DNA of 19,496 bases from IMG/VR virus record IMGVR_UViG_2671181134_000003. One strand, written 5' to 3'. The position numbers were made by a program, and so were the translations under genes. The notes under the pieces were generated by a model, which had not been told where the DNA came from, made no database searches, and saw only the letters and a list, made by a program, of their open reading frames with translations. This DNA comes from a virus. Lineage: Duplodnaviria; Heunggongvirae; Uroviricota; Caudoviricetes. Positions 1 to 5,942 of the stretch are shown here, piece after piece (position 1 is the first letter of the stretch; each line of letters opens with the position of its first letter).

Positions 1-779
1 ACGAACTGGTTGTTAAAGGGATAAATATTTACCCGGATAAGATTACTGTTACTGTGGCGCTGGAAACTGGTGGGTATACGTCACTGTTGTTGCCAAATGT
101 GGTGATTGATCTTGATCGTGTTGAAGGTGCCCCGCTGGAGTTTTACGAAGCTGAGGCGAAAAAGAAGGCGAAGCAGTTTTTCATGGATATTGCTGCCGGG
201 TTATGTGAAGGGAACGAACCGTTGCCGGAAAAGCGCCTTTGTTCAGAAGAGCGGTATACCATACAAATTAACAATGCATATAACACGATACAGTCAGAAA
301 AAGATGATATCGAATCACGCATTGAAAAACTGGAGAACAGCGTCGTTGAACTGAATAAAAAACTGTCGGTGCAGATCCCTTCCGAAGGTGAAAAAAAACG
401 CCGTGATGAGCAGTTCGCGGCGTTTTACGATTATTGCCGGAAAGTGATGAGCAGAAATCTCGCAGAGTGTTTCCGTATTCAAAAAAACAGAGAGCGCTCT
501 GCAAATAGTGAAATTCTGGATAATTTTTTAAAGGGGACGCATCTCGCCAGTGATTGTTTCATTGCTCATTCTTTTGGTGGCTTTCATGAGGCCATCAAAC
601 ATGATGTTGAGAGAAGTCCAGGTATCCTCTGTTCCATTCCCGTAAGCATCGAAATAGACACAAATACGATAACCGGTGAACTCGTTACTGCCGGAGTCGG
701 TATATTCCGTCATGAGGGGAACGATGCCAAAGGTTCCTTTACAAAAATCGGGCCGTTCTTTCTGAAGGTAGAGCGATAG
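1..779 (+). CDS. hypothetical protein, C-terminal part (reading frame open from window start; 5' end outside window)
   Basis: Frame 3 has no stop from nt 3 to TAG 777-779 (about 258 codons). Codon usage looks genuine (CTG/GAA/AAA preferred). No Shine-Dalgarno before the first GTG at 54, consistent with the start lying upstream of the window. Overlaps the 3' end of the convergent - strand ORF by about 250 nt, so one of the two may be a shadow ORF. No family recognised. Confidence 0.45.
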   Translation, partial: ELVVKGINIYPDKITVTVALETGGYTSLLLPNVVIDLDRVEGAPLEFYEAEAKKKAKQFFMDIAAGLCEGNEPLPEKRLCSEERYTIQINNAYNTIQSEKDDIESRIEKLENSVVELNKKLSVQIPSEGEKKRRDEQFAAFYDYCRKVMSRNLAECFRIQKNRERSANSEILDNFLKGTHLASDCFIAHSFGGFHEAIKHDVERSPGILCSIPVSIEIDTNTITGELVTAGVGIFRHEGNDAKGSFTKIGPFFLKVER

Positions 780-1160
780 TTTGTTAAGTACCCATCCGAC
801 AGCTCGCTCATTTTGGTTTATTTTCGTATCGCGAAACAAAAATTCGAAGCGGCCAGATGACGCATGGGTGCAACCAAATACCGGGGCGTATTCATCAACC
901 TTTGGTGTTCCTGAAAACATGCAGTCCGTGCTCTCGAATGCAGATGAATTGCTGTTGATCCACTTAACAAAAGAAAAAAAGGTCTGAATCGCTTGTCTGT
1001 CTGAATATTCAACAAAATCCTCAAGGTGTGTCTCGATCAGTTCCGGGTGTTTACGAAAGTCATAATATTGACCGGGACGATATTTATGAGTGGTTGTTTT
1101 ATCCCATGGTTGTGCTCTGCGTCCCTGTAAACGGAGGTCTGCCGCTGGATAGATAAGCAT
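528..1160 (-). CDS. hypothetical protein (about 210 aa), opposite strand to the phage late genes
   Basis: ATG at 1160-1158 is preceded by AGGAG (complement of 1168-1172) with a 7-nt spacer; stop TAA is the complement of 528-530. It is a long ORF in AT-rich DNA. The ORF-track start at 1229 is rejected in favour of the SD-supported ATG. No family recognised. Confidence 0.5.
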   Translation of the reverse strand: MLIYPAADLRLQGRRAQPWDKTTTHKYRPGQYYDFRKHPELIETHLEDFVEYSDRQAIQTFFSFVKWINSNSSAFESTDCMFSGTPKVDEYAPVFGCTHASSGRFEFLFRDTKINQNERAVGWVLNKLSLYLQKERPDFCKGTFGIVPLMTEYTDSGSNEFTGYRICVYFDAYGNGTEDTWTSLNIMFDGLMKATKRMSNETITGEMRPL

Positions 1161-2779: not shown

Positions 2780-3139
2780 AAACCGGCCAAGGATAATCCG
2801 CTGAAGATTTGCCGGTGGCTAAAGGGGCCAAGCCACCAATTTACGTAATTAGCCACAGAGATACAATATTTTAGTTTACTTATGTATTTCTGAAGCATGT
2901 CTTTGCGCAGTATCGTCGCCGTATTCCCACATGAACAGAGACCGCAGCCCTACCGGGAGACTCCTCTGCGCGAGTGTGCGGGGATAATCAAAAACGATAC
3001 ACACCGGGGTTTACCGCGTTAACGGAGCGCGGCGTTGTCCCCTCATAGTCGCCTGTCCGGTGCGATGGTGGAAGAAACCGGACTACATTGAAAATGATAA
3101 CCATTATCATTTTTGCGGGTCCTCCTGGTGGGGTGGGCC

Positions 3140-3345
3140 TGAACACGGGGCGGGCGGCGCGGAAAAAGGCGCATTTTTGTGATTTTATCGTCATCATCAT
3201 CATAATGGTAACTTATTGTTTTTAATGTGTTTAGCATTAAAAAGATGATGATTGTGGTTGATTTTTGTTCGACATCTTTATATGGCGGCATTTCTTTACA
3301 AAAAAAGAGCCACTTTTGTTCAGCGGTTTATGTGGAGGGATGTAA
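3140..3345 (+). other. candidate cos region (cosN-like GC-rich core about 3145-3162 plus AT-rich cosB-like segment with inverted repeats)
   Basis: ACGGGGCGGGCGGCGCGG at 3145-3162 resembles the lambda cosN region (ACG|GGGCGGCGACCTCGCGGG) and lies about 200 nt upstream of the terS ATG; lambda cosN is about 190 nt upstream of Nu1. The AT-rich stretch that follows has inverted TCATCATC (3191-3198) / GATGATGA (3244-3251) repeats, which could be terS binding sites. The exact nick positions cannot be set from sequence alone. Confidence 0.4.
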
Positions 3346-3822
3346 ATGGACGGCGAGCTGAAAAATATGAAGTTAAATATTAATCAACTGGCAGCCCTTT
3401 CAGGTCTGCACCGGCAGACTGTTGCCGCCAGAATGGCGGATGTTCCTCTTGCACCAGGCAGTAATGAAAAGAAAAAACTGTATCTCCTGACGGATTTGAT
3501 TATTTCGTTGCTGGAAAAACCACCGACTTCCGAAGATGAAGAGATGAACCCACATGATCGGAAGGCATGGTATCAGTCCGAGCGCGAGCGTCTTAAATTT
3601 CAGCATGAAACTGTTCAGCTTGTGCCTGTCAGTGATGTCAGGCGGTCCTTTTCTGTCGTGGTGAAAGCGATAGTTCAGGTACTGGAAACCTGGCCTGACC
3701 GGCTGGAAAGGGACAGAGGGTGGACCGCATCACAACTGAATGAAGTACAGATTGTGGTTGATGAGATCCGCGACACACTGGAAAAGGCAGTCATTGACTG
3801 TTGTGATGAGGCCGATATGTGA
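3346..3822 (+). CDS. Nu1: terminase small subunit (Nu1-like, N-terminal HTH)
   Basis: SD GGAGGG (3334-3339) with a 6-nt spacer before ATG 3346. N-terminus (KLNINQLAALSGLHRQTVAARMADVPL) resembles lambda Nu1 (MEVNKKQLADIFGASIRTIQNWQ...). Sits immediately upstream of terL with a start/stop overlap. Confidence 0.8.
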   Translation: MDGELKNMKLNINQLAALSGLHRQTVAARMADVPLAPGSNEKKKLYLLTDLIISLLEKPPTSEDEEMNPHDRKAWYQSERERLKFQHETVQLVPVSDVRRSFSVVVKAIVQVLETWPDRLERDRGWTASQLNEVQIVVDEIRDTLEKAVIDCCDEADM

Positions 3823-5942
3823 ATCAGGTGAACGAGAGCCATAGCCGCGCATCCGATATCTGGCGCGAAGTGGCCTCGCTGTTTCGCCCACCTGGCCGGT
3901 TACCAGTAGCGGAAGCCATCAGGCGTTATATGCGGGTACCACGGGGAGCCAATACTTCCGGTCCGTGGGAGTCATCGCTGACGCCCTATATGATTGACCC
4001 CATTAATACATTATCAGCCCGTGAATATGACGCGGTGGTGTTTGTGGGACCTGCGCGAACCGGGAAAACCGAAGGGCTGATTGACGGCTGGATTGTGTAC
4101 GGCATCATCTGTGATCCGGCGGATATGCTGGTGGTGCAAATGACCGAGACGAAGGCGCGGGAACACTCCAGAACGCGTCTTTCCAGAACGTTTCGTCACA
4201 GCCCGGAGGTCAGTAAGCGTCTCAGTCCTTCCCGTAATGACAACAACGTCCACGATAAAATGTTTCTTGACGGCTCCTTCCTGAAGATTGGCTGGCCGTC
4301 GATCACTGTATTTTCTTCTTCGGATTACCGTCGTGTGGCGCTGACGGATTATGACCGTTTCCCTGAAAACGTGGACGGGGAAGGGGATGCCTTCACCCTG
4401 GCATCAAAGCGTACCACCACCTTTATGTCCTCGGGGATGACCCTGGTCGAGAGTTCGCCGGGGCGGGATATCACTGACACCAAATGGCGCTGTGGCGGCG
4501 CACATGAGGCACCGCCAACAACGGGGATCCTGTCACTGTATAACCGGGGAGACCGCCGCCGGTGGTACTGGCCGTGTCCGCACTGCGGGGAATATTTTCA
4601 GCCGGTGATGGATAACATGACCGGATACCGGAATAACCCGGATTTTGTGGCTGCCGGTCAGGCTGCCCGTCTGATGTGTCCGCATTGTCGCGGGCTGATT
4701 GCCCCTGAGCAGAAACGCGAACTGAATAACAAAGGGATCTGGCTTCGTGAAGGTGAACGGGCGGTGGCGGACGGCAGTATCACCGGAACGCCACGAAATT
4801 CCCGGATTGCGTCATTCTGGATGGAGGGGCCGGCCGCGGCGTTTCAGACCTGGGAACAACTGATTTTTAAACTGCTGGCGGCAGAAGAAGAGTATGAGCG
4901 AACCGGCAGTGAAGAGACCCTGAAAGCGGTGGTGAACACCGATATCGGACGCCCCTATCTGCCCCGTTCAGCCACGGAACAGCGTAAAAGTGAACTGCTT
5001 GAACAGCGTGCCGAGCCGTTTCCCCGGCGATCTGTGCCGGATGGTGTGCGTTTTATTGAGGCAACGGTTGACGTACAGGGCGGTAAAAATCGCCGTTTTG
5101 TTGTGCAGATCACCGGATACGGAGAGCAGGGGGAACGCTGGATTGTTGATCGCTATAACATCCGGCATTCACTGCGCTGCAGTCCCAACGGTGAAAGTCT
5201 GCCGGTTGATCCGGCGGCATATCCGGAGGACTGGGATTTGTTGCTGACGGATGTGTTCCATAAAACATGGCCGCTGGCTTCTGATCCGGATGTGCGCATG
5301 CGTCTGATGGCCATGGCGGTGGATACGGGAGGGGAAGCCGGGGTGACAGATAACGCCTATCGTTTCTGGCGTCGTTGCCGGAGTGACGGACTGGGCAACA
5401 GGGTGTTTCTGTTCAAGGGGGATGGTCTTCGCCGTGACAGGCTGATTAACCGTACCTTCCCGGATAATACCGGCAGAAGTGCCCGCCGTGCCAGAGCCAG
5501 TGGCGATGTCGCGCTGTGGCTGGTTCAGACGGATGCGTTTAAGGACCGTGTAAATAATGCCCTGTGGCGTGACACACCAGGGCCGAACTATATCCACTTT
5601 CCCGACTGGCTGGGGCGGTGGTTTTACGATGAGCTGACCTATGAAGAGCGCGGCAGTGACGGAAAATGGCGAAAACCGGGCAGGGGCGCTAACGAGGCGT
5701 TTGACCTGCTGGTTTATGCGGATGCGCTTGCCGTTCTGCATGGTTACGAAAAGATCCGCTGGCCCTCCGCACCGGACTGGGCACAGCGGGAAACGTGGCT
5801 CGTCTTCCCGCAGGAGCGTTCTGGTGAAACGGTATCCCCGGAACTGACGGCCGGGGCAGAAAAACGCCGTCGCCGGAAGAAAAAACTGCGGACGGAGCGT
5901 GCGGAAGATAATCCATGGATAACATCAGGAGGCTGGTTGTGA
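3819..5942 (+). CDS. A: terminase large subunit (lambda gpA family)
   Basis: 707-aa ORF with a Walker A-like GPARTGKT motif, a conserved SLFRP N-terminal motif and a CPHCGEYF zinc-finger-like motif as in lambda gpA (CPHCGEE). GTG start at 3819 overlaps the terS stop. Stop TGA 5940-5942. Confidence 0.95.
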   Translation: MNQVNESHSRASDIWREVASLFRPPGRLPVAEAIRRYMRVPRGANTSGPWESSLTPYMIDPINTLSAREYDAVVFVGPARTGKTEGLIDGWIVYGIICDPADMLVVQMTETKAREHSRTRLSRTFRHSPEVSKRLSPSRNDNNVHDKMFLDGSFLKIGWPSITVFSSSDYRRVALTDYDRFPENVDGEGDAFTLASKRTTTFMSSGMTLVESSPGRDITDTKWRCGGAHEAPPTTGILSLYNRGDRRRWYWPCPHCGEYFQPVMDNMTGYRNNPDFVAAGQAARLMCPHCRGLIAPEQKRELNNKGIWLREGERAVADGSITGTPRNSRIASFWMEGPAAAFQTWEQLIFKLLAAEEEYERTGSEETLKAVVNTDIGRPYLPRSATEQRKSELLEQRAEPFPRRSVPDGVRFIEATVDVQGGKNRRFVVQITGYGEQGERWIVDRYNIRHSLRCSPNGESLPVDPAAYPEDWDLLLTDVFHKTWPLASDPDVRMRLMAMAVDTGGEAGVTDNAYRFWRRCRSDGLGNRVFLFKGDGLRRDRLINRTFPDNTGRSARRARASGDVALWLVQTDAFKDRVNNALWRDTPGPNYIHFPDWLGRWFYDELTYEERGSDGKWRKPGRGANEAFDLLVYADALAVLHGYEKIRWPSAPDWAQRETWLVFPQERSGETVSPELTAGAEKRRRRKKKLRTERAEDNPWITSGGWL

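Follow-up and report, generated by a model that had tools for sequence, protein, structure and literature searches.

The window, the whole 19,496-nucleotide stretch of DNA analysed here, is part of a lambdoid E. coli prophage (S19-651 is identical to it at 100 % over the stretch tested) and is close kin to Stx-converting phages such as VT1-Sakai. Upstream lies Rz (2306-2779; PF03245), which is separated by 566 bp, unannotated in the identical genome, from the gene for a 158-residue small terminase of the DUF1441 family (terS; 3346-3822, plus strand; PF07278, E 6.5e-49). The Sakai counterpart of this terS, ECs_2964, is annotated as phage terminase small subunit. A 707-residue large terminase of the lambda gpA family follows (terL; 3819-5942, plus strand; GpA_ATPase, GpA_nuclease). 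An earlier note, made from the sequence of the window, had described a palindrome like the box bound by Fur (ferric uptake regulator), an iron-sensing repressor of the host, in non-coding DNA between Rz and terS, and the site does lie in this unannotated DNA. Two minus-strand open reading frames running across it (2988-3203 and 3043-3291) were rejected as spurious; neither belongs to a protein family, and one of the two is annotated, in a single genome, as 'hypothetical' only.

The palindrome, hereafter the dyad (3090-3113; no strand), contains GAAAATGATAACCATTATC (3090-3108), which agrees with the E. coli Fur consensus GATAATGATAATCATTATC at 17 of 19 positions, with two mismatches, as the earlier note had read it; when the 19.5-kb window was shuffled 200 times with its dinucleotides preserved, no match to GATAATGATAATCATTATC at three or fewer mismatches arose. 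The symmetry is likewise real, although the arms are longer than the 8 bp first described: an inverted-repeat search gave perfect 10-bp arms, AAAATGATAA (3091-3100) and TTATCATTTT (3104-3113), on either side of a 3-nt spacer. The core TGATAAC-C-ATTATCA (TGATAACCATTATCA; 3095-3109, centred on 3102) differs from the 7-1-7 Fur dyad TGATAATnATTATCA at one of 14 positions (13/14 matched). Fur scoring here means matching to the consensus and to the 7-1-7 dyad, together with the published bit scores of Chen et al.

Rightwards, the dyad runs into a cos module. A linker, TTTTTGC (3110-3116, plus strand; a T-run followed by GC), the first four bases of which (from 3110) double as the end of the right arm of the dyad, leads to the packaging-termination signal cosQ, GGGTCCT (3117-3123, plus strand), on which position counts were aligned. 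The same 7-mer is annotated as cosQ in phage 434 (OL657226.1), is identical to lambda cosQ (48473-48479) with lambda-like spacing to cosN, and corresponds to what has been described as a highly conserved 7-bp site (PMC4669245). A 24-nt spacer of the type CCTGGTGGGGTGGGCCTGAACACG (3124-3147, plus strand) follows, its counterpart in lambda being 23 nt long and unrelated in sequence. When aligned with the joined ends of lambda, the candidate cosN is predicted to be a real one, with a nick at 3147/3148 and a 12-nt cohesive end, GGGCGGGCGGCG (3148-3159, plus strand); the dyad centre accordingly lies 45 bp upstream of the predicted nick, close to the 40 bp estimated earlier. The cohesive end's left half, GGGCGG, is the same as in lambda, CG stands on both flanks, and the window agrees with the published rule that bases 7-12 of the cohesive end alone vary (PMC4669245). 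The region between the cohesive end and terS (3160-3345, plus strand) is cosB-like, an assignment made by position only; it holds inverted repeats (3191-3211 and 3231-3251) rich in ATC/GAT triplets and, between them, the one IHF-consensus-like site near cos, on the minus strand (3209-3221), in a position like that of I1 in lambda.

Several other identities for the dyad were considered and set aside. The TTGAAA at 3088-3093, which the earlier note took for a -35-like element, reads TTACAA, TTGCAA or TTGAAA among 44 dyad-bearing close relatives and has no matching -10, so that a promoter built on it was rejected, and neither strand shows a sigma-70-like promoter that overlaps the dyad. The dyad does not qualify as an IHF site, there being no match to the IHF consensus WATCAANNNNTTR at one mismatch or fewer over 3088-3113 (the nearest is that at 3209-3221). 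Nor is it cosQ, which is the separate 7-mer at 3117-3123, some 23 bp 5' of the cosN nick. An Rfam search downstream of the Fur box gave no significant family, and a small RNA reading was rejected; the sub-threshold match to PrrF, a Fur-repressed Pseudomonas sRNA, at 3083-3223 on the plus strand (19.7 bits against a gathering threshold of 90; E = 0.82) was judged to be due to chance.

Fur binding at homologous copies of the dyad

In lambda, the dyad GATGATAATCATTATC (48450-48465) is followed by six bases, GGGTCCT (48473-48479), 23 bases and the cohesive end GGGCGGCGACCT; Qin is the same as lambda across this dyad-cos stretch and DLP12 is slightly different. A dyad lies 6-7 bp upstream of cosQ in lambda, 434, phi80, N15 and the K-12 cryptic prophages Qin and DLP12. 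That of phi80 has a perfect core and stands behind a rightward gene, and that of N15 is degenerate yet symmetric and falls within the 3' end of gene 59. In a six-way alignment of the window, lambda, Qin, DLP12, CFT073 and Sakai Sp15, the dyad, cosQ and cosN form three conserved islands in otherwise diverged DNA, GGGTCCT being invariant.

The K-12 copies are known Fur sites. Those at nohB (25.3 bits) and nohA (22.3 bits) are among the strongest, top-ten Fur clusters of E. coli (Chen et al. 2007, PMC2189734), and at both loci the cosQ-adjacent dyad is the sole sequence within three mismatches of the Fur consensus. An oligonucleotide carrying the nohA copy, which is identical to that of lambda, was gel-shifted by 150 nM Fur (PMC2189734), and Myers et al. 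2013 (PMC3688515) give a ChIP-seq summit at the nohA coordinate in their table of Fur-repressed operons. A nohA fragment was also recovered by in vivo selection of Fur sites (Vassinova & Kozyrev 2000, as cited in PMC2189734). The nohA (Qin) and nohB/nohD (DLP12) loci share with the window the order dyad, cosQ, cosN, small-terminase gene and the same 7-1-7 Fur core. The window differs in having C for T at the innermost left position of the core (TGATAAC), in its spacer, cohesive end and small terminase, which are of another type (DUF1441 as opposed to Nu1), and in lacking the divergent ylcI/ynfO gene.

Occupancy in vivo is documented for two further homologues. In CFT073, the Fur ChIP-exo peak P53 (1424699-1424711), seen in iron-replete cells only, lies beside the 'nohD' operon (PMC10164565 Dataset 2); on the fetched CFT073 sequence it corresponds to ATTATTCTCGTTT, the right half of the dyad, directly 5' of GGGTCCT, and is at -1 bp from the dyad centre and 1 bp from the best consensus match. 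In Sakai, peak P90, again iron-replete only, is assigned to the operon ECs2960-2964, the Sp15 terminase operon (PMC10164565 Dataset 2). P90 is about 125 bp off the Sp15 dyad in current coordinates and falls on the dyad after correction for an offset of +123 to +135 bp, which we calibrated on the stx1, cirA and ftnA peaks against their best Fur matches; the CFT073 peaks show no coordinate offset. The current Sakai record is a revision, 128 bp longer than the original. The displacement of the Sakai peak coordinates (PMC10164565 Dataset 2) relative to NC_002695.2 extends at least over 2.59-2.98 Mb, and as a result several peaks listed as 'Intergenic' fall inside genes on the current record. Other Sakai prophage peaks (P28, P34, P36 and P50) were considered, and none is at a cos site. 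For MG1655, no ChIP-exo peak is listed for the nohD/nohQ dyads (PMC10164565), which may be because reads of 31 nt map to Qin as well as to DLP12.

Sp15, which holds the closest relative of the window dyad, has the same cos type, the same terminase genes and the same 15-bp dyad core, TGATAACCATTATCA, as the window, and its P90 operon figures in the Fur regulon given for Sakai. The two differ in the flanks of the dyad, TTGCAAATG in Sp15 and TTGAAAATG in the window, and Sp15 has one T fewer before cosQ. The cohesive-end region of Sp15 (about 1113-1125 of its locus, minus strand) also has one extra G relative to GGGCGGGCGGCG, reading GGGCGGGCGGGCG; a cohesive end of another length or in another register would result there. 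Stx1 prophages, which are of this kind, have a further Fur operator in their late region, at the stx1 promoter; ChIP-exo shows it bound as well (peak P91 of that dataset), at a distance of 7 kb from the dyad in Sp15. The stx1 box overlaps the defined promoter of the toxin operon, whereas neither a promoter nor a dedicated target gene was identified at the cos-proximal dyad.

Being homologous to copies that bind Fur, and identical in its core to one of them, the window dyad would be expected, with high confidence, to bind iron-loaded Fur. The earlier note had allowed that the palindrome might be a packaging or host-factor site (cosQ/IHF-like) resembling a Fur box by chance; with cosQ a separate element and IHF unmatched, that proposal finds no support, and the binding of Fur to homologous copies means that the likeness to a Fur box is not accidental. 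In the literature searched there was no paper linking Fur with cosQ, cos or terminase; the main text of the Fur pan-regulon paper makes no mention of phage, and the P90 site is never discussed in that paper (PMC10164565).

Distribution and conservation of the dyad beside cosQ

We scanned viral contigs for cosQ and cosN only (GGGTCCT, 18-24 nt, ACGGGGCGG), a pattern that picks sites irrespective of the dyad. A Fur-consensus match at up to 5 mismatches in 19 was present within the 45 nt before cosQ in 59 of 115 distinct sites, against 0.3 % of random 45-nt windows from the same contigs at the same threshold. Over 63 distinct sequences, cosQ has its first base 11-16 bp, mostly 13-15 bp, from the centre of the 7-1-7 core. 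The conserved positions are chiefly those of the Fur 7-1-7 motif, in a profile which is somewhat inflated by the picking of sites at up to four core mismatches.

Among the 58 loci with intact terS and terL, 44 carry the dyad and 14 do not. Both main terminase lineages are represented on each side: 21 loci with and six without the dyad have a DUF1441 terS and a window-type TerL, and 20 with and eight without have Nu1 and gpA, the remaining three, all with the dyad, combining another terS with gpA. The loci that carry the dyad include two families of small terminase and spacers of three types. Close relatives, defined by the window's own spacer, carry it in 44 of 62 contigs, the other 18 being of the terminator type described below; the core is identical in 42 of these 44, while the bases of the left flank vary. 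Conservation of the palindrome in related prophages was a check that the earlier note had proposed. The note's sense of a link with cos proved sound, the dyad being tightly and widely tied to cosQ, a tie for which neither of its two readings accounts.

To the left of the dyad there are minus-strand genes of the YlcI/YnfO type, a minus-strand gene for a small secreted protein of the CFT073 type, or rightward genes such as Rz. Lambda, 434, DLP12 and Qin each have a DUF3950 gene, ylcI/ynfO, which lies some 150 bp from the dyad and runs divergently to the left. An operator for that divergent gene was tried as a general explanation and rejected, because left neighbours are mixed and often rightward and the window has no such gene. 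Judged from these neighbourhoods, the dyad is tied to no particular neighbouring gene. Mosaic joints occur on both sides of the block formed by dyad and cosQ: at 3089/3090, where homology with ylcI-bearing prophages ends (at 3089), and at 3123/3124, where PhiR5_1-type phages, L028 and H10-H15 match through cosQ and continue with a lambda-type spacer and cosN. With an invariant core, varying flanks and unrelated contexts, the dyad is apparently under purifying selection in phages. It is not required for packaging, given that intact members lacking it occur in both terminase lineages and that satellite-like cos sites have none.

The latter sites form a class of their own. A canonical intrinsic terminator ends 2 nt before cosQ in 16 distinct dyad-less sites, all of which lack an intact terS/terL downstream, and the dyad is present in none of the nine distinct cos sites with a 93-residue open reading frame downstream. 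These nine, L085 (1035-3463) and eight further sites (for example L029, L094, L119, L266, L297 and L314), combine a window-type or related cosQ-cosN and a strong intrinsic terminator upstream with a conserved 93-residue open reading frame, without a Pfam family, in place of terS/terL; L085 also has a ClpP-protease/capsid fusion upstream of cos. They look like satellite elements (capsid-forming, PICI-like) that borrow the window's cos type. An earlier idea of ours, that dyad-less phages use a terminator at the same spot and that both devices insulate the terminase genes, was withdrawn because the terminator sites are satellite-like. Dyad-bearing and dyad-less cos sites (L015-L134) share T-T-T-R-C directly 5' of cosQ, which hints that the functional context of cosQ may extend leftwards past the 7-mer by a few bases. 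A scan of species-representative genomes for the taxonomic span of the dyad was dominated by chance matches in high-GC genomes.

Proposed function of the dyad at the lysis-cos-terminase junction

Expression data for fur mutants are available for the strains in which the dyad is occupied. In PMC10164565 a gene enters the regulon of a strain if, besides a peak, it shows |log2FC| >=1 at P <=0.05 when wild type and fur mutant are compared; the sign of log2FC follows known Fur-repressed genes (fepE, +3.3). By this measure, genes adjacent to the dyad rise 2- to 8-fold in the fur mutants of Sakai and CFT073: ECs2961 (+1.12) and ECs2963, which is terL (+1.05), in Sakai; and, in CFT073, the rightward C_RS07370 (+2.13) and the leftward C_RS07340 (+2.33) and C_RS26755 (+2.95) (all PMC10164565). 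On our reading these changes would be a direct local effect. However, the Sakai values are small, and ECs2976, elsewhere in Sp15 and far from the dyad, is likewise at +1.05, so that a general rise in prophage induction, more of it being spontaneous in the fur mutant, could account for the Sakai increases instead of local derepression. In the MG1655 fur mutant, nohD/nohQ are unchanged, with counts near zero (PMC10164565). In the W3110 fur mutant (Dataset 3), ybcV, ybcW, ylcI, nohD, ynfO and ydfO are 4- to 40-fold lower, a change that affects genes to the left and to the right of the DLP12 and Qin dyads and goes in the opposite direction from that in Sakai and CFT073.

The left side of the CFT073 locus holds a leftward small open reading frame by the dyad and cos (about 1100-1400 of the locus, minus strand) with a signal-peptide-like N-terminus, MKIRNILAISLATSSFSCLA, and, some 0.7 kb beyond it on that side, a gene for a 'TonB family protein' (455-781, plus strand). 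With its rise of +2.3 to +2.9 log2 in the fur mutant, the leftward unit may be Fur-controlled accessory cargo.

Taken with the occupancy of homologous copies, these data lead us to regard the dyad as a genuine host Fur operator that damps transcription at the lysis-cos-terminase junction, a reading to which we assign a probability of roughly 0.6. The dyad would have come down with the lambda-like cos module, which comprises dyad, short T-run, cosQ, about 23 nt and cosN. Iron-loaded Fur dimers would sit on the core in iron-replete cells and leave it when iron is scarce. In the lysogen, Fur would then modestly damp, in an iron-dependent manner, transcription starting at or crossing the junction, affecting the terminase/head operon rightwards and, where they are present (there are none in the window), accessory genes leftwards. 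This modest, iron-dependent repression in the lysogen is the consequence of binding that has most support, though on this part of the reading we are evenly divided. The metal-responsive operator envisaged in the earlier note is strongly supported as regards Fur binding, through the nohA gel shift and the iron-replete CFT073 and Sp15 peaks, but not as regards its TTGAAA promoter or small transcript. The operator model gives no account of the constant place of the dyad beside cosQ, whatever lies to its left, and this leaves room for readings in which the dyad is linked to packaging, serves as a decoy or is retained by linkage.

Position is the principal argument for a role in packaging, in which a protein bound at the dyad, Fur or another, would help terminase at the downstream cos and the dyad would belong to cos as a working element, not to transcription as an operator; such a protein might halt the motor for a while in its translocation, just ahead of cosQ, or put a bend in the DNA, or shield its right end. 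The spacing to cosQ, never outside 11-16 bp in the 63 sequences, is kept over both small-terminase families, the three spacer types and unrelated DNA and genes of either orientation on the left, and mosaic joints flank the dyad-cosQ block on either side (3089; after cosQ in L028). The cos fragment of one packaging study (lambda 48446-182) contains the dyad, so that construct does not part it from cosQ. The cosQ mutants, for their part, are suppressed by mutations that slow packaging. Set against this are the 14 intact loci, from both terminase lineages, and the satellite-like cos sites that do without the dyad, although the latter still need cosQ and cosN. The 5-bp variation in spacing implies no helical phasing, the motor would be expected to strip proteins bound to the DNA, and mutagenesis by Wieczorek and Feiss in 2001 reportedly delimited cosQ to 7 bp. 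We consider a packaging role unlikely, though the least unlikely of the alternatives, and its specific form, in which Fur near cosQ modulates packaging termination or guards the right genome end and so couples DNA maturation to iron, a little less likely still.

We are equally doubtful that the dyad is a hitch-hiking relic, an ancestral operator of a leftward accessory gene of the ylcI/ynfO type which persists as a functionless orphan through linkage to cosQ. The divergent DUF3950 gene in lambda, 434, DLP12 and Qin fits such an origin, as do the CFT073 leftward small open reading frame, the most derepressed of the neighbours, and the window itself, which lacks such a gene and loses homology with ylcI-bearing relatives at 3089. 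However, the core invariant in 42 of 44 close relatives despite varying flanks, the many loci that keep the dyad behind a rightward neighbour such as Rz, and the continued presence of Fur on the ylcI-less Sp15 copy indicate continued selection. A decoy seems rather less probable: hundreds of strong sites on replicating phage DNA would titrate Fur and derepress host iron uptake, for instance so that the iron-dependent ribonucleotide reductase is supplied in lytic growth. The rank of the site among the strongest in the genome, the recovery of the nohA copy by in vivo selection on cloned fragments, in the cited account, and conservation in phages but not in satellite-like elements would suit a decoy, which could nevertheless lie anywhere in the genome and gives no reason for a position beside cosQ; moreover, each genome brings one site to a Fur pool of thousands of molecules per cell.

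Least plausible of all, and by some way, is a weak intrinsic terminator, an AT-rich hairpin and U-run stopping Q-unmodified RNA polymerase before cos and the terminase genes. As RNA the dyad can indeed fold into an 11-bp hairpin with U-rich sequence behind it (-7.3 kcal/mol alone; -14.1 kcal/mol, z = -3.6, with flanks), and in satellite-like relatives the canonical terminator stands at this very place, its end 2 nt short of cosQ. Yet those terminators (-14 to -17 kcal/mol) belong to another kind of element, the A-U-rich stem of the dyad has one G-C pair, pairing with the A-run uses up the U-run, and a terminator scan did not call the dyad as an intrinsic terminator. Conservation, too, tracks the Fur motif rather than pairing, the symmetric positions 1, 2, 4 and 7 being complementary in about 73 % of cases.

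The preferred reading, a host Fur operator, makes the dyad a site of a known kind, like those at nohA and nohB, to which the window copy adds a member from another terminase module. Regarded simply as a Fur site it contributes little, nohA and nohB having been in the literature since 2000-2007 and the core-identical Sp15 peak in a supplementary table since 2023. Its setting is more unusual: a Fur box that ranks with the strongest of E. coli stands 6-7 bp from cosQ in the genome of lambda itself, and among intact lambda-like cos phages about three quarters, over different terminase families, carry such a dyad beside a cosQ from which it is distinct, the remaining quarter having cosQ without it. 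The wide conservation of a top-ranking Fur box in this place seems to have gone unremarked so far. A dyad that does no more than damp stray transcription into the terminase genes of the lysogen would be a minor point of regulation. Were the dyad to sway packaging or lytic physiology according to iron supply, a host input would be added to a textbook system, and a coupling of Fur to virion DNA maturation, if real, would be an unrecognised host-factor input to a well-studied packaging signal. There may also be a bearing on Stx phages, in which the toxin gene is itself under Fur control.
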